32,000 bases of DNA from Thermofilum adornatum (GCF_000446015.1 NC_022093.1:1718260-1750259), one strand, 5' to 3'. Positions 770 to 30,736 are shown, numbered from the stretch's first letter. A program made the numbers and translations. The notes: generated by a model from the letters alone, not told the origin.

Positions 770-1141
770 CTAGGCTGTCTCTAGTTTTTTCTTTATGTCT
801 CTTAGTGTGTATAGTAGTACTCCTAGACGTGTGTCTTTGTTGAATAGGACTGCTAGGTATCCTATTTGGCCTAGCTTGGTGTATATTATTCCCGAGCCGT
901 CTGGGGCGTTGACCGTGATCCATTCTGCCTCACCCTTTCCCAGCTCCGTGCTAGCCCTGTTGCCCACCTCGCTCAACACAGCTGTCAGCGCTACAACCTT
1001 CTCCTCCAGCTCCTTGTCAGCCAGACTACTAAACAAAGGCAAACCATCACTACTCGAAACAACAAAACCCTCAACACCACCAACCCTAGCCACGCCTTCA
1101 ACAACACGCCTAACCTCCTCAACACTCACATAAACCACCAT
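770..1141 (-). CDS. Roadblock/LC7 (MglB-like) domain protein
   Basis: 123 aa. It shows the typical Roadblock pattern VEGFVVSSSDGLPLFSSL ... ALTAVLSEVGNRASTELGKGE ... ITVNAPDGSGIIYTKLGQIGYLAVLF. The ATG at 1141 overlaps the 3' end of the upstream gene by 16 nt. Confidence 0.8.
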   Translation of the reverse strand: MVVYVSVEEVRRVVEGVARVGGVEGFVVSSSDGLPLFSSLADKELEEKVVALTAVLSEVGNRASTELGKGEAEWITVNAPDGSGIIYTKLGQIGYLAVLFNKDTRLGVLLYTLRDIKKKLETA

Positions 1142-1680
1142 ACTTTTAGCTCCTTGGCCAATTCGTTTAAGAATGTCCTGGTGTATATGTCGACTAGCCT
1201 GTTATAGACCTCTTCACTGATCCCTGTGGCTTTCTTGAAAACTCTCTGCCTTATTATTTCGTAGCTGAGAATCATGACGGCGAGATTCCACCCAAAGACC
1301 TTTGCAAGCATAACTATATGGCTCGGTTCACCGTCGCTTGTCTTCAGAGTCTCAGATAGAAAAACAGAGACCAAGGGAGATAGAGAGTGCAAGGGGAAAC
1401 CTCCCCTAACAAGCAATAGGCCAATCCTAGCGACATCTAGGCAGTGACGCTCGCCGTAATCACTCTGGAAAATAGTTGTGAACCAATATTCAAAAAGCCT
1501 CTTGGATCTTGTCTCGTCTAGCCCGGCCTTTTTCAAGGCTTCTGACAAATCATTGTTTTTTGATATCGAGTCTAGTGCTGTCCTCACTATTTCTTCTTTC
1601 CTTGCAGAAATTGCTTTGTATATTTCCTTTAAGTTTTTCTTAACGTCTTCTGTTATACCCAAGAGAAGAGAACTCTTCAC
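1126..1680 (-). CDS. Hypothetical protein, globin-coupled-sensor-like (protoglobin-fold) domain, paralogue A
   Basis: 184 aa, all-helical composition. By eye the layout matches sensor-globin domains: LLLGITEDVKKNLKE, then IFQSDYGERHCLDVARIGLLLVRGGFP, then FGWNLAVMILSY. It is a clear paralogue of 1877..2458. Coding status is confident; the fold assignment is tentative. Confidence 0.45.
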   Translation of the reverse strand: MKSSLLLGITEDVKKNLKEIYKAISARKEEIVRTALDSISKNNDLSEALKKAGLDETRSKRLFEYWFTTIFQSDYGERHCLDVARIGLLLVRGGFPLHSLSPLVSVFLSETLKTSDGEPSHIVMLAKVFGWNLAVMILSYEIIRQRVFKKATGISEEVYNRLVDIYTRTFLNELAKELKVWWFM

Positions 1681-1876
1681 AGCCAGAAACTAGAATGGTT
1701 CTTAGAGATTCCTCATGCGCCACAACATCCAACCGTAATGATTGAATATAACTCTAGAGGTAAACTATGTTTTACTATTAACTAATCCAGCTACTTCACA
1801 AACTTTCCTACGATTTGAAACAGTGCTTGGAAAGGGGAAGCTAACCTATTAGCTATTTAGCCTGTCAAGGCCACGT

Positions 1877-2458
1877 CTAAGCCAGTTCTTTGTCTATATT
1901 CCTGTAAATTTTCTCAGCTGTAAGCTTCAATAGACGATCATAACTTCCACTAGTGATACCTAGGCTGTTCGCGAAAACCTCTTCATCTATCGTAAAGTAA
2001 CTCTCCATCATGTTTGACAGCAACCATCCACATGCTTGTATGATTGCCTTTACCTGATTGGAATTTGAATGGCTATGCCTTACAATTTCTTGAGAAAGAA
2101 TGAACATAAGCATGATAAGCATCCTAGGCGGGATGCCTATCTTTATTAGATCAAAAGTCAACCTGGCGATTCTAACTGTATGTTCTTCGCTGAAGTCTCC
2201 TTTAAACATCTCATCTAATATGTTTTCCAAAATACCTCTAACGTATCCAGGTTCAAGCCCCCTCTCGCGAAATATTCGGGCTAACTCAGAGTTCTGCAGA
2301 AGGGAATACATACAGGCATGAACAATTTCATCCTTACTTAAATTGACCATATGAGACATATCGTGGAGAGTTGTCTTAGTCTGATTATTTATCCCGAGTA
2401 GAAGACTCGAGTATAACCCATTTTTTAGTATTTTCTCTCGCAAACTCATGAATCTCAC
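1877..2458 (-). CDS. Hypothetical protein, globin-coupled-sensor-like (protoglobin-fold) domain, paralogue B
   Basis: 193 aa. It is collinear with paralogue A: SSLLLGI, EIV, MFKGDFSEEHTVRIARLTFDLIKIGIPP, CGWLLSNMMESY, GITSGSYDRL. The ORF begins with GTG at 2458. An ATG at 2449, about 20-25 nt downstream of the TATA-like AAAAATAATTTATAG, is an equally likely start. Confidence 0.45.
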   Translation of the reverse strand: MRFMSLREKILKNGLYSSLLLGINNQTKTTLHDMSHMVNLSKDEIVHACMYSLLQNSELARIFRERGLEPGYVRGILENILDEMFKGDFSEEHTVRIARLTFDLIKIGIPPRMLIMLMFILSQEIVRHSHSNSNQVKAIIQACGWLLSNMMESYFTIDEEVFANSLGITSGSYDRLLKLTAEKIYRNIDKELA

Positions 2459-11600: not shown

Positions 11601-11625
11601 CTTATTCAATAAAAAAAGGGTTAAC
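11601..11625 (-). promoter_or_regulatory. GGTTAAC half-site plus TATA-like box upstream of the second binding-protein gene
   Basis: The minus strand reads GAAATAGTAGTTAACC-c-TTTTTTTATTGAATAAG and ends about 20 nt before the ATG at 11581. Confidence 0.4.
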
Positions 11626-11651: not shown

Positions 11652-12668
11652 TTATATCCAGCGGAAGATTGCGCTTGCCATGACGAAGCCTACTCCAGAA
11701 GTGATGAACTGTATGTAGTCTCCCTTCTTAATCTTGCCCTGTGTTAGAGTATCGTGTAGAGCCATGAATACGCAGGCAGATCCAGTGTATCCATATTTCT
11801 CCATGATGGTTGGGGCCTTCTCGATTGGCTGTCCAAGTAGCCTCATCAGCTGGTGGATCATCTCTCTGTTTACCTGTGTGACGAAGTAGTAGCTTATGTC
11901 GTTGGCTGTTAAATTTGCCTTTTTCTGTACCTCTTGTGCGAGTCCTGGCCAGTGGCGAAGGTTTATGTCGGGTGGATACCTTTTAAGGTACCTCAGCTTG
12001 TGCCATCCCTCCTTTACGACGTTCTCGTTTACTGGTCTTGCACCCCCTATGTATATGCCCCAGTAGTCTGTATAACTACCATCCGCAATTATTTTTCCAG
12101 TAATGTAGCCAGGTTCACTTGATGGGCCAAGAATGACGGCTCCAGCTCCGTCAGAGAAAATGGAGGCAGTCACGTCTTGTGGGTCAATAAATTTGGTCAT
12201 CGTGTAAGGTGAAACTACCAAGACATAGTTGACGTCTTCGTTGAGCATGATGTTCTGTGCCGCAAGCATGAGGGCTATTGTGTTGTCTGCACAGGCCGCG
12301 TTTATGTCGAAGCCTCCCGTTTTTAGTTTTGCGCCTAGCTTCTGGTGAACTGCACAAACTGTTGGTGGGGTCTGGAAGTCTGGGGTATCTGTTGCGAATA
12401 TGATAAGGTCGATATCGTCTATAGTGAGGTTGGCGTTTTGAAGAGCCATTCTAGCGGCTTCTGCGGCTAGATCCGAGGGGGCCTGGTCTGGCGCAGAGAC
12501 GTATCGGTGTTTGATGCCTATGCGGTTTTCTAGTGCATTTCTCCATGCATCGGGGAGCTTGAGACCAAAGAACTTTTCATAGTCATCGTTAGTTACTAGT
12601 GTTTTTCCAAGGGCTATGCCCGTGCTCACTATCCTGGCATATTTTTTTATTTCAGGCTTCGTAGCCAT
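11652..12668 (-). CDS. Beta-ketoacyl synthase III (FabH)-like thiolase-fold protein with a non-canonical active site
   Basis: It is collinear with FabH throughout. The nucleophile motif FDINAACADN is conserved. The positions matching the FabH HQAN and GNTSAAS motifs read TQVN and GYTGSAC. The ATG at 12668 is the second codon of the ORF-track model. Confidence 0.85.
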   Translation of the reverse strand: MATKPEIKKYARIVSTGIALGKTLVTNDDYEKFFGLKLPDAWRNALENRIGIKHRYVSAPDQAPSDLAAEAARMALQNANLTIDDIDLIIFATDTPDFQTPPTVCAVHQKLGAKLKTGGFDINAACADNTIALMLAAQNIMLNEDVNYVLVVSPYTMTKFIDPQDVTASIFSDGAGAVILGPSSEPGYITGKIIADGSYTDYWGIYIGGARPVNENVVKEGWHKLRYLKRYPPDINLRHWPGLAQEVQKKANLTANDISYYFVTQVNREMIHQLMRLLGQPIEKAPTIMEKYGYTGSACVFMALHDTLTQGKIKKGDYIQFITSGVGFVMASAIFRWI

Positions 12669-12688
12669 CAAAATACTCTGGGAAAAAT

Positions 12689-15552: not shown

Positions 15553-16305
15553 TCATTCACCCAGGTAGATTTTCTGAACCTCCCTATTCTCAACTATCTC
15601 TTTGGGAGACCCTTCCGCGAGAATACTTCCCTGATTCATTACGCTGACTTTGTCTGCTACTTCGAGAACAACATCTATTTTGTGCTCGATCACTACAACT
15701 GTTTTCTTCATTTCGTCTCTCAGCTTTTTAATGAGACGTACAATTGGTGCTACCTCCTCTAGAGATACGCCGGCCGTGGGCTCATCTAATGCTATGAGCT
15801 TTGGGTTTCCAGCAAGGGCAATAGCGATTTCTAGTTTCCGTTTGTCGCCTGGGGTGAGGCTACTTGCCAAAATGTTTGTCTTGCCGTAGAGGCCAGTTAT
15901 GGAGGCAATCCGCATGGCTTCCCAGACAACATCTTTGTAATGGCTTGTTGGATGAATGAAGTCCCATCTCACGTTTTTCCATTTTGCTTGGACAGCAAGC
16001 CTTATGTTTTCGAGAACAGTAAGGTTTGGGAAAATCGAATATATTTGGAAAGACCTTGTTAGACCCAGGGAGCTAATGTAGTGAGGGGGTTTACCAGTTA
16101 TATCTCTGTCCTCAAAATACACTTTACCACTTGTAGGTTTGAGGACTCCAGTAATCAAGTTAAATAGCGTTGTTTTCCCAGCACCGTTGGGACCTATTAT
16201 AGCATGAACCGTGCCCTGCGCCACCTTCAGGTTAACATTGCTGACAGCTACGAGTCCACCGAAGCTCTTTGTGAGATTTTCTGTGCGTAGAATTATGCCT
16301 GACAT
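15553..16305 (-). CDS. livG: HAAT-family ABC transporter ATP-binding protein, LivG-type
   Basis: Walker A GPNGAGKTT, LTRSFQIYSIFPNLTVLENI and Walker B LIALDEPTAGV. Confidence 0.9.
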   Translation of the reverse strand: MSGIILRTENLTKSFGGLVAVSNVNLKVAQGTVHAIIGPNGAGKTTLFNLITGVLKPTSGKVYFEDRDITGKPPHYISSLGLTRSFQIYSIFPNLTVLENIRLAVQAKWKNVRWDFIHPTSHYKDVVWEAMRIASITGLYGKTNILASSLTPGDKRKLEIAIALAGNPKLIALDEPTAGVSLEEVAPIVRLIKKLRDEMKKTVVVIEHKIDVVLEVADKVSVMNQGSILAEGSPKEIVENREVQKIYLGE

Positions 16306-17891: not shown

Positions 17892-19463
17892 CTACACCTC
17901 TAACTTGTCTTCAGGTTTTCCATAAAGGATTTTAAGAGGCTGGCGAGCCACCTTCCCAGTCTCCGTGTAGACAAGTTGGGGAACAACTTCTACATACTTT
18001 GGTATTTTGTATTTCGCGAGCTTGTCTTTCAAGAAATCTATGACTTCTTCTTTCGTTATCTTTTCTCCCTCCTTAAGTACAATCAATGCCTTTGGAACCT
18101 CCCCCCACTTGGGGTCAGGGACTCCTATAACCACTGCATCCTTAATCTTTGGATGCATAATCAAAAGCCTCTCAATTTCTTCTGGATACACGCTCTCTTC
18201 ACCACTCCTAATGATGTTCTTAATTCTCCCAGCTATCCAGAAATAGCCTTCCTCATCTACCCTAGCAACGTCTCCCGTAGCCAGCCATCCATCCTTTATA
18301 ATAGACTTCATCTCTTCCTCGTTTTTCAGGTATCCTGAAAACACGCTTGGACCCCTTAGGTACAGCTCGCCCTCAACACCTCTGGGAGCCTCACTTCCAT
18401 CTGGAAGAACAACCCTGGCCTCTATCAATAGGTTCGGTTTCCCAATCGACCCCATTTTCCTCTTAGCGTCCCATGGATCGAGAGCAAAAATACCTGGACC
18501 CATCTCGGTCATCCCAAAACCTTGTTTCTGGACAACACCCTTCTCAAATATTTTCTCGATGATGTCTGGCGTTAACGCTCCCCCGCCGCTTGTAAACCAC
18601 CTAACGGATGAAAAGTCTGCGTCCTTGAAACGGGGCGAAGCAAGCAACATCCTAAGTTGCGTCGGAACCAGGAAGAGAAATGTTGGTCTCTCCTCTTCTA
18701 CGAGGTCAATAAACCTATCAACATTCCATCTTCGCATTAGAATACTTGTCCCTCCAAACATTAATAGAGGGATTAGATATGTGAAGGCACCAATGTGGAA
18801 GAGAGGTAACGTGTTGATTGTGACGTCGCCAGGTATAACCAAGTCCCTAACAGTGTTCAAGGCGTTCCAGAGAATCATCCTGTGACTTACTATTGTAAAT
18901 TTTGGCTTTCCAGTTGTTCCACCAGTTTGTAGTATTAGGGCGGGGTCTTCGAGGCAACACGCCGTCGAGACATCATTGGAAGAGTATTTCTCATAATTAA
19001 ACTCGTTTGGACAGTCATAGCACACTTTCTTCGTCTCTATGTTAGAGACGGTTTCTGAAAATTCTTTTTCATATAGGAGAACTTTTGGATTGACTTTATC
19101 AACAAACTCTTGAATTTCACGTGAAGTGTACCTCGTGTTTATAGGAGCTAGGACACAGCCAATCTTGAAACATGCAAGAAGCGTGGCAACAAACTCTATG
19201 CGGCTCCACGAAAGAATAGCTACATAATCTCCCTTGCTTATTCCGAAATTTTCCCGAAGAAAATTAGCAATCTTGTTGGACATCTCGTTTAGCTGTGCAA
19301 AGGACACCGTACGTAAGGGTATCGTTAGGTCGTCCTTGAGTGCTATCCAATTACCACTTATATCTGCTCTACGAGCTATCCAGTTGTTGACCCATTTTCC
19401 ACACGTATAGATTCTCTCCAGAGACATATAATGCATGTTAATAGGTGAAATCGTGTTATACAT
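17892..19463 (-). CDS. AMP-dependent acyl-CoA synthetase/ligase (ANL superfamily)
   Basis: Core motifs: LQTGGTTGKPK, GFGMTE, GWLATGDVARVDEEGYFWIAGRIKNIIRSGEESVYPEEIE and a C-terminal TETGKV. Alternative ATG starts at 19436 and 19427 would leave the palindrome at 19467..19485 further upstream. Confidence 0.9.
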   Translation of the reverse strand: MYNTISPINMHYMSLERIYTCGKWVNNWIARRADISGNWIALKDDLTIPLRTVSFAQLNEMSNKIANFLRENFGISKGDYVAILSWSRIEFVATLLACFKIGCVLAPINTRYTSREIQEFVDKVNPKVLLYEKEFSETVSNIETKKVCYDCPNEFNYEKYSSNDVSTACCLEDPALILQTGGTTGKPKFTIVSHRMILWNALNTVRDLVIPGDVTINTLPLFHIGAFTYLIPLLMFGGTSILMRRWNVDRFIDLVEEERPTFLFLVPTQLRMLLASPRFKDADFSSVRWFTSGGGALTPDIIEKIFEKGVVQKQGFGMTEMGPGIFALDPWDAKRKMGSIGKPNLLIEARVVLPDGSEAPRGVEGELYLRGPSVFSGYLKNEEEMKSIIKDGWLATGDVARVDEEGYFWIAGRIKNIIRSGEESVYPEEIERLLIMHPKIKDAVVIGVPDPKWGEVPKALIVLKEGEKITKEEVIDFLKDKLAKYKIPKYVEVVPQLVYTETGKVARQPLKILYGKPEDKLEV

Positions 19464-19466
19464 TTT

Positions 19467-19485
19467 AGGTTAACATTGTTAACCT
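19467..19485. promoter_or_regulatory. Inverted repeat AGGTTAAC-ATT-GTTAACCT (candidate operator)
   Basis: The 8-bp arms are perfect. It lies 4 nt upstream of the longest-ORF ATG of the acyl-CoA synthetase, inside the 194-nt divergent region shared with the HTH regulator gene. Confidence 0.5.
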
Positions 19486-19657: not shown

Positions 19658-20392
19658 ATGATGTACATTGGAGTGTTCGACATTGAGCAATATGATTGCC
19701 CCGTTGTTAAATTGACCGAGAAAAGAGAAGGCGTTACAACAACAGTTCTATCAGTAAATGTATCTGAACTTTCAAGGGGAGTAGAGCAGATCTTTTTAAC
19801 AATTAAGAGTTCCGAGCAGGACAAGCTTAAGGACATTCTAGAAGTCGCGCAAACAATTCCCGAAGTAAAGAACTGTAAAGTACTTGGGAAGTCTGACGAT
19901 GCATGGAGAATACTCATGAACATTAAAAAGACACATACAATGGAGGCTAGTGTAAATCTTGGTGCAATGTTTGTTTCTCCGTGGATTGCGAGAAGCGGCG
20001 TTGAGAGGTGGACCCTAGGCTTCATAAGTAAGAAACAGTTCTACGATTTTCTGTCTTTGATCAGGGAAAGAGACCATGTAAAGAAATACTACTTGACAGA
20101 GGTAAAGGAGGAGGACTTTGTAACTGTTTCTGCAAACTATCTATCTATACTTAAATTGGTTTCGCAACTGAACAAGCTGACCCCCAATCAGCTGAACATG
20201 TTAAAGCTGGCTTTGTCTAAGGGATATTATTCGTGGCCGAAGGGGGTTGATAGCGTTGAACTATCAAGAATGCTAGGCGTTTCTCGTGTGAGTATAATTA
20301 AGTCGCTTAGGAAAGCTGAATACAAGGTGCTAGGTCCCGTTGTAGAATTTGTGTCAATGGTTAAGAAAGATTGGGAGAAAAACTACACTTAA
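19658..20392 (+). CDS. HTH_10 (Bat-type) helix-turn-helix transcriptional regulator
   Basis: The C-terminus LTPNQLNMLKLALSKGYYSWPKGVDSVELSRMLGVSRVSIIKSLRKAEYKVL matches the HTH_10 pattern (LT..Q...L..A...GY...PR......LA..LG.S......LRRAE.K). The TATA-like AAATTTAAATAG lies about 27 nt upstream of the ATG. Confidence 0.75.
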   Translation: MMYIGVFDIEQYDCPVVKLTEKREGVTTTVLSVNVSELSRGVEQIFLTIKSSEQDKLKDILEVAQTIPEVKNCKVLGKSDDAWRILMNIKKTHTMEASVNLGAMFVSPWIARSGVERWTLGFISKKQFYDFLSLIRERDHVKKYYLTEVKEEDFVTVSANYLSILKLVSQLNKLTPNQLNMLKLALSKGYYSWPKGVDSVELSRMLGVSRVSIIKSLRKAEYKVLGPVVEFVSMVKKDWEKNYT

Positions 20393-20412: not shown

Positions 20413-21387
20413 CTAAGCCAGTGGAGATGCAATAGTGGTTCCTAGGTCTATGGGTATCACTATTCCTGTGAGTGCCTCGTTTTCCACCACGTGGTATGCC
20501 AATTTAGCAATTTCTTCCGGCTCGACGAGTCTCGCTATTGGAATCCTCCTTAAGTATTCTTGGAGGATCGGTGAAGGCACTGCGAGAGCCATCCTAGTCT
20601 TGGCGAATCCTGGAGCTATAGCTACGACTCTGATACCGTAGGGGGCAAGCTCCTTTGCAAGCGTCTTAGTGAGACCTATGAGTCCCGCCTTAGAAGCCGC
20701 ATAATTTGCCTGGGCAATGTTTCCAAGCAATCCTACAATTGACGAAATATTGATGATTACTCCCCCGCCGTTCCTTTTCATTATTGGGAAAACAGCTTTT
20801 GAGCATAGGAAAGCTCCCTTTAGATTCACATTTAATACGCTGTCCCAGTCTTCGTCCTTCATTCTCTCTAGATAAGTGTCACGTGTTATGCCAGCATTGT
20901 TTACCAATACATCGATCCGGCCGGCCAGCCGTAAAGCCTCTGATATGCCCTTAGAAACACTCTCACTCTTGCTGACGTCCATCTCTACGAAGTATGCCTC
21001 TACACCTAGGTTCTTTATAGCTTCGAGAGTTTTTTCTGCTTCCTGATCTCTCACTATATCCGCAATGACGACGTTGTAACCGTGCCGAGCAAACTCTAGT
21101 GATATTGCCGCTCCTATGCCTCTGCTTCCCCCGGTAACAAGGACGACTTTTCTTGGCTGATCGACACGCGGGATAAATACTGGGATTTTGCCGAAGACTG
21201 TCAATTCTTCTGTGAGTTCTCCTTCAGCTCCCTCCTTTACAAGCCCCATGTATTTTTGAGGTATTCTCGCGATTCTTTTTTCTCCATTTCCATTCTCAAC
21301 TATGGCGACGATGTACGTAGACTTGTAGGGCTCTACAGGGGTCAGCAATTCGGTAAATATTCTTACTTTCCACGCCATTCCCTTCAC
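20413..21387 (-). CDS. Fusion protein: N-terminal DUF35-type OB-fold domain plus short-chain dehydrogenase/reductase (FabG-like 3-oxoacyl reductase)
   Basis: SDR part: VVLVTGGSRGIGAAI (TGxxxGxG), LVNNAGI, ISSIVG and the catalytic YAASKAG (YxxxK). The N-terminal ~75 aa (AWKVRIFTELLTPVEPYKSTYIVAIVENGNGEKRIARIP...VKEGAEGEL) match the DUF35 OB-fold pattern by eye, and no zinc ribbon is present. The GTG start overlaps the thiolase TGA (GTGA). The SDR call is confident; the DUF35 call is moderate. Confidence 0.8.
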   Translation of the reverse strand: MKGMAWKVRIFTELLTPVEPYKSTYIVAIVENGNGEKRIARIPQKYMGLVKEGAEGELTEELTVFGKIPVFIPRVDQPRKVVLVTGGSRGIGAAISLEFARHGYNVVIADIVRDQEAEKTLEAIKNLGVEAYFVEMDVSKSESVSKGISEALRLAGRIDVLVNNAGITRDTYLERMKDEDWDSVLNVNLKGAFLCSKAVFPIMKRNGGGVIINISSIVGLLGNIAQANYAASKAGLIGLTKTLAKELAPYGIRVVAIAPGFAKTRMALAVPSPILQEYLRRIPIARLVEPEEIAKLAYHVVENEALTGIVIPIDLGTTIASPLA

Positions 21388-22559
21388 CTCTCAAAAACGA
21401 TAACTACTGAAGTTGCCCCAGTCCCACCATGATTCTCAACTAAGCCTCTTTCTGCATCTTTCACTTGCCTGGCCCCGGCCTCACCCCTTAGCTGCCAGTA
21501 TACCTCTGCGACCATGCCTACACCCGTTGCACCAATGGGGTGTCCCTTAGCCTTCAACCCACCACTTGGGTTTACTGGCTTAGATCCTGTGAATGCTGTT
21601 ACCCCGTCCCTAATCAGCTTGTAGCCTTCGCCTCTCTGTGCAAGCCCAAGCATCTCGTAGAGAATTATCTCAGCGATTGTAAAGGCGTCGTGGACTTCGA
21701 AAAGGTCTATCTTTTCTGGGCCATATCCACTCATCTTGTAAGCTTCTTGGGCGGCTTGCCTGGCCGCCTCGATAGCTGACATGTCTTTTCTTTGGTAGAC
21801 CCCTGAATAATCATGCTTCATAGCTATGCCGCTGATGTAGACGGGTGTATCAGTATACTTTTTAGGCTCCGAGCTCATGAGAAGGGCTACGGCCCCATCG
21901 GAGAGTGGCGAGGCATCAAATAGTTTTAGGGGCGGTGATATGTATGGAGACTTCAAGACGTCTTCAACTGTGATCTTCTTCTGAAACTGGGCGAGCGGGT
22001 TTCTTGTAGCGTTTTCATGGTTCTTTACGGCGACCAAGGCTAGGTCCTCTTCCTTTGCCCCGTAGCGGTTCATGTATTCTCTAGCTATTAAAGCATAGAG
22101 GCTTAGAAATGGAGCCCCCACTTTGTACTCTTCTGGCGCACTTGTACGCATCAAGATCTCATTCGACTTTGCAGACGTCCCCACAGTGCTCATTTTTTCA
22201 AAGCCAACAATCAGGGCGTTTTTAAAGAAGCCAGCACTGAGAAGCTTGTGTGCAAGATAAACAGCTGTTGTACCAGCTGCACAGGCATTTTCAACCCTGA
22301 AGCCCGTAGCGTTTAGGTTCCCAATGTAGCTTGCTACAAGGGGGGCTGTATGCAGTAAGCCCCCGAAGGAGTCACTGTAGTTGGAGACTATGATTAGGTC
22401 TATTTCCTGCGGAGAAATCCCCTTCTCAACGCTTTTCAGGGCTCCCTCGACAGCTTCACGTATCATTTCGTGTGTCTCCTTTTGACTCCTGGCCTCATAC
22501 TTTGTGCTATAGGCTCCTACAACGCCTATTCTACCGTTTTGGGGCGTTAGTGTCACCAA
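21384..22559 (-). CDS. Thiolase-fold acetyl-CoA C-acyltransferase (archaeal / SCP-x-type thiolase)
   Basis: Nucleophile region FRVENACAAGTTAV and C-terminal NPSGGLKAKGHPIGATGVGM and ENHGGTGATSVV. 391 aa. Starts with TTG or GTG. Confidence 0.9.
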   Translation of the reverse strand: MVTLTPQNGRIGVVGAYSTKYEARSQKETHEMIREAVEGALKSVEKGISPQEIDLIIVSNYSDSFGGLLHTAPLVASYIGNLNATGFRVENACAAGTTAVYLAHKLLSAGFFKNALIVGFEKMSTVGTSAKSNEILMRTSAPEEYKVGAPFLSLYALIAREYMNRYGAKEEDLALVAVKNHENATRNPLAQFQKKITVEDVLKSPYISPPLKLFDASPLSDGAVALLMSSEPKKYTDTPVYISGIAMKHDYSGVYQRKDMSAIEAARQAAQEAYKMSGYGPEKIDLFEVHDAFTIAEIILYEMLGLAQRGEGYKLIRDGVTAFTGSKPVNPSGGLKAKGHPIGATGVGMVAEVYWQLRGEAGARQVKDAERGLVENHGGTGATSVVIVFER

Positions 22560-22592: not shown

Positions 22593-22610
22593 AGGTTAAC
22601 ATTGTTACCT
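22593..22610. promoter_or_regulatory. Near-copy of the 19467 palindrome: AGGTTAACATTGTTACCT
   Basis: It is identical to the 19467..19485 element except for one missing A in the right arm. It lies 34-51 nt upstream of the thiolase start in a 69-nt intergenic region. Confidence 0.5.
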
Positions 22611-23287: not shown

Positions 23288-23295
23288 GGTTAACC
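23288..23295. promoter_or_regulatory. GGTTAACC palindrome between divergent promoters
   Basis: It lies in the 98-nt divergent intergenic region. On the plus strand it is followed directly by TATATTAC. On the minus strand it is followed after 7 nt by TTTTATTTATC. Confidence 0.4.
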
Positions 23296-29402: not shown

Positions 29403-30736
29403 ATGCAGGAAGAAGAGAATGTTCCCCAGGGCGACCTCAGAAGAGAAGTGAGCCTATTTGGAGCATTCAGTATAGGCTATGCTGACGTGGGAGCGGACAT
29501 ATATATTACGCTTGGACTTGTAGCTCTTTATGCTGGAGGAGCCACACCTCTGGCCCTCATCATTGCTGGTATAGTCTACGTCCTTGTTGGAAGTGTCTAT
29601 GCAAAGCTTTCTGGACGTTATCCCTATGCCGGTGGTGCACAGTTCTACGCTCAGAGGGCGCTTGGACCCATGCATGGTTTTATTGCTGGGTGGGGGCTGA
29701 TGCTCGACTATACAATTGATATTGCCCTCTTTGTGTTGGCCTCAGTTGGCTACCTTGGATACCTCCTCAAAGCCACTCTTGCTTTGGCTTGCTACTCGTC
29801 AACCCATACTATGCATTTGTCAGCGCTCTTTTTGTTGGGTTTTTAGGTTTCCTAAATATATTGGGGATACGGGAATCTGTAAGGCTGAACAAGCTGTTCG
29901 TGGCGCTCGACTTGGCAACGCTGTTTTTGGTTCTAGGCGTCGGCGGAAGCATATACTTCTTTTTCAATGGCTTTTCATGGAAACCTCCCAGCATTGGTCA
30001 AGATGTGCCTGTGGGGAACTTCCTCTACGCAGTCACGATTGCCATGGCTTCATACGTTGGTGTCGAGGCAATATCCCAGGCTGCAGAGGAAACAAGTAAC
30101 GCTAGTAAAACTGTTCCAAAAGCGACATACCTCACGGTCTCCTTGACACTACTAGTGGCTCTTGCAGGAGCATTCTTCATTGCATCAAGCCCAGTCAACA
30201 ATGATGAAGCGCTTCACCCATTTGCTGGGCTAGCCCTAAAGGTTCCCATCATAGGGACGTGGCTTGCCCTCTGGGTAGGTTTAATGGGGTTCCTGATTAA
30301 CCTTGCCTCAGCGAACTCTGGGGTAATAGGTGTAAGTAGAGTGGCATACTCGATGGCCCGGACGGGACTTCTACCAGAAGGTTTTAGGAGAATTAGTCGA
30401 AGAGGGGTTCCATATATCTCGATAGCTGTTTTCACCATTATAGCTACAGGACTAATAATCGTGAATGGTTTCTCTACTAGCTTGCACCTCCTAGAGCTTA
30501 TTGCCTCACTTTATAATTTCGGCGCCATAGTTGCATATATCTACGCCTCGATTAGCCTAGTGAAGCTGTCAGCAAATAAGCAAGAGAAGCTTCTCGGCAT
30601 CCTCGCTACAGTCGCCTGCATATTTATGCTGACACTCCTCGTGTTTTTACACCCGGAGGGAAGAATCTTGGCCTTGCTATGGTTCTTGGTAGGTCTTACC
30701 CTATACTTTCTTAAAGATCAACCTGTCCACAAATAA
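29403..30736 (+). pseudogene. APC-superfamily amino acid permease interrupted by a -1 frame change (ORFs 29403..29846 and 29789..30736)
   Basis: The N-terminal ORF (FGAFSIGYADVGADIYITLG...YPYAGGAQFYAQRALGP..GFIAGWGLMLDYTIDIAL) and the C-terminal ORF (NILGIRES...AMASYVGVEAISQAAEETSNASKTVPKA...) together make one APC transporter of about 445 aa. The second frame is open from 29720. Confidence 0.8.

Follow-up and report, generated by a model that had tools for sequence, protein, structure and literature searches.

The nearest functional analogue described for the gene pair treated here is the 'archaeal fatty acid synthase complex' of Sulfolobus acidocaldarius (Saci_1121/1120, Saci_1104 and a MaoC protein), in which the thiolase Saci_1121 depends on its DUF35 partner for solubility and the two together bind a FabG-like reductase and a dehydratase (bioRxiv 10.1101/2024.07.05.601840). 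Our pair lies in a stretch of 32,000 nucleotides from the genome of Thermofilum adornatum (GCF_000446015.1 NC_022093.1:1718260-1750259; the whole of this stretch is called the window below), where a thiolase gene is followed by a gene encoding an OB domain of the DUF35 type fused to a short-chain dehydrogenase/reductase (SDR), here called OB-SDR. As in S. acidocaldarius, a DUF35-family partner would bring a FabG-like SDR to an archaeal-type thiolase and would couple condensation or thiolysis to 3-keto/3-hydroxy redox chemistry. In S. acidocaldarius, however, the DUF35 protein is separate and full-length, the association is non-covalent, the reductase is strictly NADPH-dependent and a dehydratase is present, whereas the window encodes an OB-only remnant fused to an SDR with an NAD-type aspartate and has neither a dehydratase nor an enoyl reductase nearby. 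We consider it probable that the two genes form a coupled operon in which the OB domain docks an (R)-3-hydroxyacyl-coenzyme A (CoA) oxidoreductase on the thiolase, the likelier direction at this locus being catabolic.

The nearest architectural analogues are bacterial, namely ChsH1-ChsH2(DUF35)-Ltp2 and Shy(DUF35)-Sal (6OK1, 9MYR; PMC12329534, PMC11321319), where DUF35 is likewise fused to the enzyme of a neighbouring step and is known to dock on a thiolase-fold dimer. The DUF35 domain of Shy is N-terminal, as is the OB domain of the window, and the DUF35 domain of ChsH2 was found to be the best structural match of the latter; the bacterial proteins differ in that the fused enzyme is a MaoC hydratase, the docking partner is an aldolase with a remodelled active site, and the N-terminal helix and zinc finger are kept. 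The 6ESQ complex contains a thiolase homologous to that of the window (E=2e-64) and a DUF35 subunit which ranked first among the sequence matches of the OB profile (E=2.6e-7), and it shares the logic by which an unfavourable thiolase equilibrium is pulled by coupling to the next enzyme; that enzyme is 3-hydroxy-3-methylglutaryl-CoA (HMG-CoA) synthase, though, the DUF35 protein is free and two-domain, and a fused CoA-binding site has been demonstrated there. BbsAB with the SDR BbsCD (7PXP) sets a thiolase and a DUF35-like subunit beside an SDR-type hydroxyacyl-CoA dehydrogenase in beta-oxidation-like catabolism, but on separate polypeptides, with the zinc site of BbsA kept, in bacteria and on aromatic substrates. 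Dehydrogenase and thiolase steps are also coupled in FadBA, the mitochondrial trifunctional enzyme and peroxisomal MFE-2 (2ET6, which shares the beta2 aspartate with the window SDR), although these systems are assembled by other means, have no DUF35/OB tether and include a hydratase.

Against this background, the novelty which a preliminary description of the locus gave to a DUF35-SDR device was overstated: fusions of DUF35 to Rossmann/SDR-like domains were already listed, in one line, in 2010 (PMC2954200), DUF35-hydratase fusions docking on thiolase-fold enzymes have been structurally characterised (PMC12329534), and the non-covalent complex has been reported (bioRxiv 10.1101/2024.07.05.601840). 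Our literature search for a described DUF35-SDR fusion returned no dedicated or characterising paper, only the one-line listing of 2010. Most likely, the thiolase and OB-SDR of the window are a covalent version of known enzyme complexes, which makes them a useful variant and not a new principle.

Domains and junction of the thiolase/OB-SDR pair

The N-terminal segment of about 75 residues was found to correspond, as had been proposed, to the OB half of DUF35 without its zinc ribbon, with profiles, AlphaFold and Foldseek in agreement. AlphaFold gave a confident five-stranded barrel for residues 6-73, with predicted local distance difference test (pLDDT) values of 77-96. As a Foldseek search with the full-length fusion model returned SDR/FabG matches only, the OB domain was modelled separately, and the top 13 matches in the PDB were then all DUF35 proteins, including ChsH2-DUF35 (6ok1_B, the best match, E=4.9e-4, template modelling (TM) score 0.76), PhlB, BbsA, Trf and the DUF35 protein of 6ESQ. 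At the level of sequence, an OB profile of the family had the DUF35 subunit of 6ESQ as its sole match in the PDB (E=0.022), and a more diverse OB profile matched this subunit (6esq_E) with E=2.6e-7 and ChsH2-DUF35 (6ok1_B) with 1.4e-3. PF01796, the DUF35 OB domain now named OB_ChsH2_C, matched 17/31 family N-termini (best E=5.7e-5); the zinc ribbon of DUF35 has a Pfam entry of its own (PF12172).

No cysteine occurs in residues 1-78 of the fusion, which excludes a zinc ribbon from this segment. A zinc ribbon hidden upstream of the fusion or in the thiolase C-terminus was considered and rejected, the upstream reading frame closing inside the 3' end of the thiolase gene in 17/17 related loci. Because the two-domain architecture has been stated to be conserved in all DUF35 homologues (Krishna et al. 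2010, PMC2954200), the window domain is best described, from its sequence, as an OB-only derivative of DUF35 in which one defining feature of that family, the zinc ribbon, is absent.

The remainder of the fusion bears out the complete FabG-like SDR that was expected after the OB segment. Residues 80-318 match adh_short (E=3e-63) and adh_short_C2 (E=4e-57), the domain is 44-47% identical to bacterial FabG structures found with Foldseek, and the motifs TGGSRGIG (85-92) and NNAG (163-166) are invariant in 43 family sequences together with the catalytic tetrad Asn188, Ser216, Tyr229 and Lys233. Judged by these residues, the SDR part is an intact FabG-like enzyme whose predicted catalytic residues are complete. 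It scores 246 with the NCBIfam subfamily model NF009466, above the cutoff of 222, and 267 with the FabG equivalog model TIGR01830, below the cutoff of 297.75; no gene for an acyl carrier protein (ACP) was seen in the window.

The top PDB sequence match of the SDR domain was the (3R)-hydroxyacyl-CoA dehydrogenase 2ET6, which we take to be the NAD+-dependent MFE-2 of Candida tropicalis. Asp110, invariant and placed at the end of strand beta2 (VVIAD), aligns with VVVND of both 2ET6 dehydrogenase domains, and N-Y stands at this position in three FabG structures, of which two were solved with NADP(H). In classical SDRs an aspartate at the end of beta2 marks an NAD-type enzyme. Among the relatives recovered with the OB profile, two (P0123 and P0124) carry a degenerate SDR that has lost its glycine motif and NNAG as well as the catalytic Tyr/Lys, suggesting a purely structural role for the domain in those lineages; they recall BbsC, the subunit of BbsCD that is catalytically inactive.

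The thiolase of the pair matches Pfam Thiolase_N and Thiolase_C_1 and keeps the catalytic residues Cys93 (NACAAG) and His340 (GHPIG) as well as the HDxF motif (HDAF, 290-293), which is a catalytic motif of archaeal ACAT (PMC12960953). Its PDB matches were 7yvy, 4yzo, 6esq_A (the M. thermolithotrophicus thiolase), BbsB, PhlC, Ltp2 and Sal, and several of the solved relatives, 6ESQ_A among them, carry DUF35 partners (6esq, 7pxp, 5m3k, 6ok1, 9myr). By these comparisons the enzyme is classed as an archaeal/SCP2-type thiolase; those members of this class that have been characterised operate together with DUF35 proteins. The best NCBIfam model, NF004720, gave a score of 409 (cutoff 420), and the equivalog model for the acetoacetyl-CoA thiolase of the mevalonate pathway, NF053570, gave 338, below its cutoff of 600. 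No HMG-CoA synthase gene adjoins the thiolase gene, which is assigned as a paralogue of the mevalonate-pathway enzyme and not its equivalog.

The two genes had been described as overlapping at their stop and start codons in the sequence GTGA. These four letters are physically present at the junction (GAG AGG TGA AGG GAA TGG CG), and a mechanical call from the GTG at 21387 gives an open reading frame (20413-21387, minus strand) of 324 residues, the numbering of which is used for OB-SDR throughout. The GTG was, however, rejected as the start codon: at 17 related loci the fusion homologues all start at the equivalent of the ATG at 21378-21376 (MAWKV.../MVWKL...), and so does P0001, a database protein of 321 residues which is 98% identical to the window fusion and has the N-terminus MAWKV. 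For this reason the real start is probably the ATG at 21378, and the pair is probably tightly coupled through a 5-nt spacer with a Shine-Dalgarno-like element rather than by a true overlap. In the window, as in the majority of the 17 related loci, an AGGTGA-like motif that includes the thiolase TGA lies shortly upstream of the fusion start; at the 17 loci checked, no more than about 10 nt separated the thiolase stop from that start.

Conserved position of the OB domain behind thiolase genes

The preliminary description had left the spread of the fusion to a survey. The OB-SDR architecture of ~322 residues was found in about 50 clusters at 90% identity, from Thermofilum, Infirmifilum and metagenome-assembled genomes (MAGs) labelled Sulfolobales, and all of these entries are annotated '3-oxoacyl-ACP reductase FabG', with the N-terminal domain recognised in none. 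The N-terminal segment is conserved at the protein level in >40 clusters, down to about 25% identity. A thiolase homologue lies immediately upstream of OB-SDR in 18/18 SDR-fusion loci (14 from species genomes and 4 from assemblies), which span Thermofilaceae, Sulfolobales/Desulfurococcaceae MAGs and one Nitrososphaeria MAG, and the order of thiolase followed by OB protein was seen in all 23 of the 23 related loci examined. The survey of genome contigs used a single peptide pattern and recovered no Thermofilaceae, so that the distribution is undercounted.

Searching 1.84 billion representative proteins with the OB profile returned 40 clusters in three architectures, with no canonical two-domain DUF35 among them. 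In the first, OB is fused to an SDR; in the second, it is fused to a 3-hydroxyacyl-CoA dehydrogenase of the HADH/Hbd type (3HCDH_N + 3HCDH; P0129, P0132, P0140), which is unrelated to, and non-homologous with, the SDR; in the third, it stands alone as a protein of 70-104 residues (P0141 and P0138 were checked and are complete genes). When five loci were looked up, including two HADH fusions and two stand-alone proteins, the OB-bearing gene lay directly 3' of a homologue of the window thiolase (44-59% identity) in 5/5, the two genes overlapping by 4 nt or being 2 to 5 nt apart. Because two unrelated enzymes of the same reaction have acquired the same OB domain, both right after the same kind of thiolase, there is strong comparative evidence that the partner of the OB domain is the thiolase, and that the selected function would be to place the thiolase step beside the 3-keto/3-hydroxyacyl-CoA redox step. 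The earlier idea of a fusion that links ketoacyl/hydroxyacyl redox chemistry to the thiolase is thus favoured by the comparative data, that is, by the unbroken adjacency, the OB-HADH fusions and the solo OB. What appears to be new here is a zinc-free mini-OB clade, with its solo form, its fusions to two dehydrogenase folds and its constant position 3' of thiolase at all loci examined.

The individual loci differ in their surroundings. A mini-OB-HADH fusion directly follows the thiolase at L019 (2358-4585) and at L020 (127-2363); the pair at L019 is embedded among glycosyltransferase, DegT-aminotransferase and methyltransferase genes, and it may supply a 3-hydroxybutyryl group for sugar modification. 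At L021 (2859-6061), a stand-alone mini-OB of 74 residues overlaps the thiolase stop by 4 nt and adjoins a divergent two-subunit family I CoA-transferase (AtoDA-like), an arrangement that suggests an acetoacetate-utilisation unit.

Promoter motif and gene neighbourhood

The GGTTAAC palindrome noted earlier in the promoter of the pair is present, with GGTTAAC at 22594-22600 and a partner half that is imperfect (Table 1). Seven of the 8 distinct GGTTAAC sites are intergenic, though only 7.2% of the window is intergenic (binomial about 7e-8). Sites of the form GTTAACC/GGTTAACC occur at 11619, 12705, 19468-19484, 22594-22609, 23288-23295 and 27323, with one intragenic site at 16230; in most cases the motif stands roughly 30-55 nt 5' of the start codon, and it is mostly followed at once by a T-rich TATA-like stretch. 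The promoters that bear it are those of the thiolase operon, an operon of acyl-CoA ligase, hydrolase and ATP-binding cassette (ABC) transporter genes, a substrate-binding protein, a KAS III-like gene, a divergent pair encoding a secreted C92-amidase and a membrane esterase, and an ADP-forming acetyl-CoA synthetase. Together these promoters suggest a regulon, with the adjacent HTH_10 protein as its possible regulator, and the gene for this protein stands beside the thiolase/OB-SDR pair in 16/18 SDR-fusion loci. The motif is over-represented in a Thermofilum relative (L018), with 8 sites vs 0.69 expected, three of them inside the thiolase coding region, and a related element, GGTAAnC-N3/4-GTAACC, is found upstream of the thiolase in several related loci.

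Table 1. Coordinates of the thiolase/OB-SDR pair, its domains and signals, and selected neighbours in the window.
Feature	Coordinates	Strand	Remarks
Thiolase gene	21384..22559	-	391 residues
OB-SDR fusion gene	20413..21378	-	321 residues from ATG at 21378
DUF35-type OB fold, five-stranded barrel	21169..21375	-	residues ~5-73; AlphaFold, Foldseek, profiles
FabG-like classical SDR domain	20416..21150	-	residues 80-324; Pfam, Foldseek, NCBIfam
AGGTGA, Shine-Dalgarno-like	21384..21389	-	contains thiolase stop TGA; 5 nt upstream of fusion ATG
GGTAAC-AAT-GTTAACC, imperfect copy of palindrome GGTTAAC-AAT-GTTAACC	22594..22609	-	35 nt upstream of thiolase start
HTH_10 (bat-type) transcription regulator, candidate regulator of motif promoters	19658..20392	+	Pfam PF04967; convergent with fusion gene
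Acyl-CoA ligase (AMP-binding)	17892..19463	-	perfect palindrome GGTTAAC-AAT-GTTAACC at 19468-19484 in promoter
KAS III (FabH)-like protein	11652..12671	-	active-site Cys kept; His->Thr (FVTQVN), Asn->Tyr (GYTGSA)

The acyl-CoA ligase gene is the first of an operon that also encodes two alpha/beta hydrolases and a Liv-type ABC transporter; when a substrate was sought from the hydrolases, their matches to enol-lactonase or polyhydroxyalkanoate-depolymerase models all fell below threshold, so that none was assigned. Just 5 nt separate the perfect palindrome from the ATG annotated for the ligase, whose Thermofilum orthologue is 14 residues shorter; translation probably starts at Met13 (about 19427) instead, with the palindrome then some 40 nt upstream. 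A Liv-type ABC transporter, the KAS III-like gene, an acyl-CoA ligase or family III CoA-transferase and at least one alpha/beta hydrolase form a wider module common to Thermofilaceae and other lineages. Thermofilaceae have the pair inverted relative to the HTH_10 gene (convergent) and an AMP-forming ligase as the activating enzyme. In the Sulfolobales/Desulfurococcaceae MAGs the HTH_10 gene, thiolase and OB-SDR follow one another in this order and are co-directional, and in the MAG loci with precomputed gene tables a family III CoA-transferase is found instead of the ligase; the window was compared with L001-L016. As judged by gene order, the thiolase/OB-SDR pair is a unit that moves together.

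In the KAS III-like protein, the substitutions of the active-site His and Asn are conserved in 8 syntenic loci, and because of them it is not a decarboxylating condensing enzyme; it may instead transfer acyl groups or play a structural part as PhlA/MucA do. Genes for stand-alone DUF35, MaoC dehydratase, enoyl reductase (including MDR), acyl-CoA dehydrogenase and crotonase were all absent from the 32-kb window, to which the scan was confined. A local fatty-acid-synthase gene set was accordingly rejected, as no MaoC, enoyl reductase or stand-alone DUF35 was found in any of the 32 kb.

Two further features of the window were recorded. An amino-acid permease gene (29403-30736, plus strand) is split into two overlapping open reading frames in different frames, of 147 residues (Pfam profile positions 11-116) and 315 residues (111-408), and is either a frameshifted pseudogene or the product of a sequencing error. 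Two tandem weak protoglobin-like genes (770-2458, minus strand; 184 and 193 residues) adjoin a Roadblock/LC7 gene and are unrelated to the thiolase/OB-SDR pair.

Proposed coupling, its direction and its alternatives

In the structure of Shy-DUF35 with Sal, contact with the thiolase-fold enzyme is made primarily through the N-terminal helix and the OB subdomain (PMC12329534), and in 6ET9 the thiolase is contacted by the cleft between the two domains of DUF35 (PMC6996347). From these precedents, and from the dependence of Saci_1121 on its DUF35 partner (bioRxiv 10.1101/2024.07.05.601840), we infer binding of the OB domain to the thiolase dimer. The stoichiometry, channelling, stereospecificity, cofactor preference and direction of the assembly are inferred as well. 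The OB domain would act as a thiolase-docking module, doing the same job as canonical DUF35 does as a free scaffold or in hydratase fusions, and would keep the oxidoreductase that interconverts 3-ketoacyl-CoA and (R)-3-hydroxyacyl-CoA attached to the thiolase dimer, a covalent link taking the place of the non-covalent binding by which the next enzyme is otherwise recruited. As an intermediate, 3-ketoacyl-CoA is unstable and thermodynamically awkward; it could then move from one active site to the other before coming to equilibrium with the bulk. Such coupling would serve both ways, with reduction pulling the endergonic condensation, and thiolysis pulling the endergonic NAD+-linked oxidation.

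The NAD-type Asp110, the gene neighbourhood with its motif-linked genes, and the lack of a nearby dehydratase or enoyl reductase favour the catabolic direction. The motif-linked neighbours look catabolic, comprising ABC uptake, an acyl-CoA ligase, esterase-type hydrolases and an ADP-forming acetyl-CoA synthetase. In a catabolic run, (R)-3-hydroxyacyl-CoA and NAD+ would give 3-ketoacyl-CoA, thiolysis of which would give acetyl-CoA, and this may feed the nearby ADP-forming acetyl-CoA synthetase, whose promoter carries the same motif, to yield ATP. More speculatively, 3-hydroxy acids or esters would be taken up, hydrolysed, activated with CoA, oxidised by the (R)-type SDR and cleaved by the thiolase, a route for which no acyl-CoA dehydrogenase or hydratase would be needed.

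Several observations weigh against docking, against catabolism, or against both. The Foldseek E-values of the OB domain are modest (5e-4 to 2e-2), with generic ribosomal OB folds close behind, and Pfam on the 80 N-terminal residues of the window protein alone gave no significant match, with DUF2500 appearing only below threshold (E=0.09); the DUF35 relationship is visible only at the family/profile level, and the PF01796 match sought in residues 1-80 is found in the 17 family members but not in the window copy. The OB-SDR family is also without the N-terminal helix and the zinc ribbon, both of which contribute thiolase contacts in canonical DUF35 complexes. The cofactor signal is mixed, the NAD-like Asp110 being accompanied in the glycine motif by an Arg89 of the FabG/NADP kind. 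Use of NAD(H) does not in any case fix the direction; the clostridial Hbd reduces with NADH, and NADH-dependent reduction is common in fermenters. The cluster holds a KAS III-like gene that the simple catabolic scheme leaves unexplained, and one OB-HADH locus lies inside a glycosylation gene cluster, suggesting biosynthetic use there.

Some of these points lend themselves to an anabolic module, in which condensation would be followed by reduction in an ACP-independent fatty-acid, reverse beta-oxidation or 3-hydroxyacyl-donor pathway and the pair would be the covalent counterpart of the S. acidocaldarius complex. We hold this to be unlikely, though with a real chance of being right. In its favour, binding of a FabG-like reductase by the S. 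acidocaldarius thiolase/DUF35 pair has been put forward as a way of pulling the endergonic Claisen condensation (bioRxiv 10.1101/2024.07.05.601840), the window has FabH-like and FabG-like genes in one cluster, and a 3-hydroxybutyryl donor would make sense for the OB-HADH/thiolase pair among glycosyltransferase and aminotransferase genes. Against it, dehydratase and enoyl reductase genes are missing from the window, Asp110 is of the NAD type whereas Saci_1104 uses NADPH strictly, the FabH-like protein is without the His and Asn needed for decarboxylative condensation, and the neighbours and common promoter motif tie the pair to uptake, hydrolases, CoA activation and an ATP-yielding acetyl-CoA synthetase. 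The link to an archaeal ACP-independent fatty-acid pathway, which the preliminary description had drawn, is weakened by the same gene content (no MaoC, enoyl reductase or stand-alone DUF35 in the 32 kb), by the NAD-type aspartate of the SDR and by the catabolic-looking neighbours. The reverse, beta-oxidation-like direction, which that description had allowed, is favoured by Asp110 and the neighbourhood, with Arg89 and the KAS III-like gene as contrary signs.

Compatible with docking of the OB domain on the thiolase, and in our estimation quite unlikely, is a tripartite complex in which the Cys-only KAS III-like protein takes the place of HMG-CoA synthase, PhlA or MucA and the reductase is built in. 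The combination of PF08541, thiolase and PF01796 is the genome-mining signature of such complexes (PMC12960953), and all three domain types (KAS III-like PF08541, thiolase and PF01796-type OB) are present in the window cluster. The KAS III-like gene is syntenic with the pair in 12/17 related loci and in the Thermofilum locus L018, and its promoter bears the same GTTAACC motif. It lies 9 kb from the pair in the window, however, and in a different transcription unit, the zinc ribbon that possibly mediates the second contact in canonical complexes is absent, and no KAS III-like neighbour was found at the OB-HADH and stand-alone OB loci. A bolder conjecture, which we rate as equally doubtful, is that the mini-OB is a portable thiolase-docking tag, joined in evolution to at least two unrelated dehydrogenase folds and used alone as well, and that in Thermofilaceae and related Thermoproteota the thiolase, OB-SDR and the Cys-only KAS III-like protein form a hitherto unseen ACP-independent condensing/redox complex, controlled through HTH_10 and GGTTAAC, for (R)-3-hydroxyalkanoate metabolism, for example that of polyhydroxyalkanoate or other polyesters.

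An OB domain that does not anchor the protein to the thiolase, but serves the SDR as an acyl-CoA/ligand-binding or oligomerisation domain, is very improbable. An acyl-CoA-binding role was proposed for DUF35 in 2010 (Krishna et al., PMC2954200), and the predicted template modelling (pTM) score of 0.88 for the full-length fusion model suggests that OB packs against the SDR. Every solved DUF35 complex, on the other hand, uses the domain as a protein-protein scaffold on thiolase-fold enzymes, and OB domains that are solo or borne on an unrelated dehydrogenase fold are still encoded directly after a thiolase in every case looked up. That the N-terminal 75 codons are untranslated and the real protein is an ordinary FabG of 245 residues is scarcely credible, for although the window segment has no Pfam match and the closest non-fusion relatives have 245-248 residues, the region around the SDR boundary has no start codon, the segment folds confidently and is widely conserved as given above, and the conserved Shine-Dalgarno-like motif and ATG precede it.

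If the docking of OB-SDR on the thiolase is true, the ~70-residue OB half of DUF35 would suffice to bind archaeal-type thiolases, leaving the zinc ribbon and helices to recruit a second free enzyme or to shape the site for it. The mini-OB could also be put to use as an off-the-shelf tag in engineered reverse beta-oxidation pathways. For the family itself, recognition of the OB domain corrects >50 database entries named '3-oxoacyl-ACP reductase FabG' in organisms without ACP, in which the N-terminal domain had gone unrecognised. Natural, compact and thermostable thiolase-plus-dehydrogenase assemblies of this kind would offer material for structural work on the coupling of Claisen condensation or thiolysis to redox chemistry in archaea, which is central to the debate on archaeal fatty-acid synthesis versus degradation.

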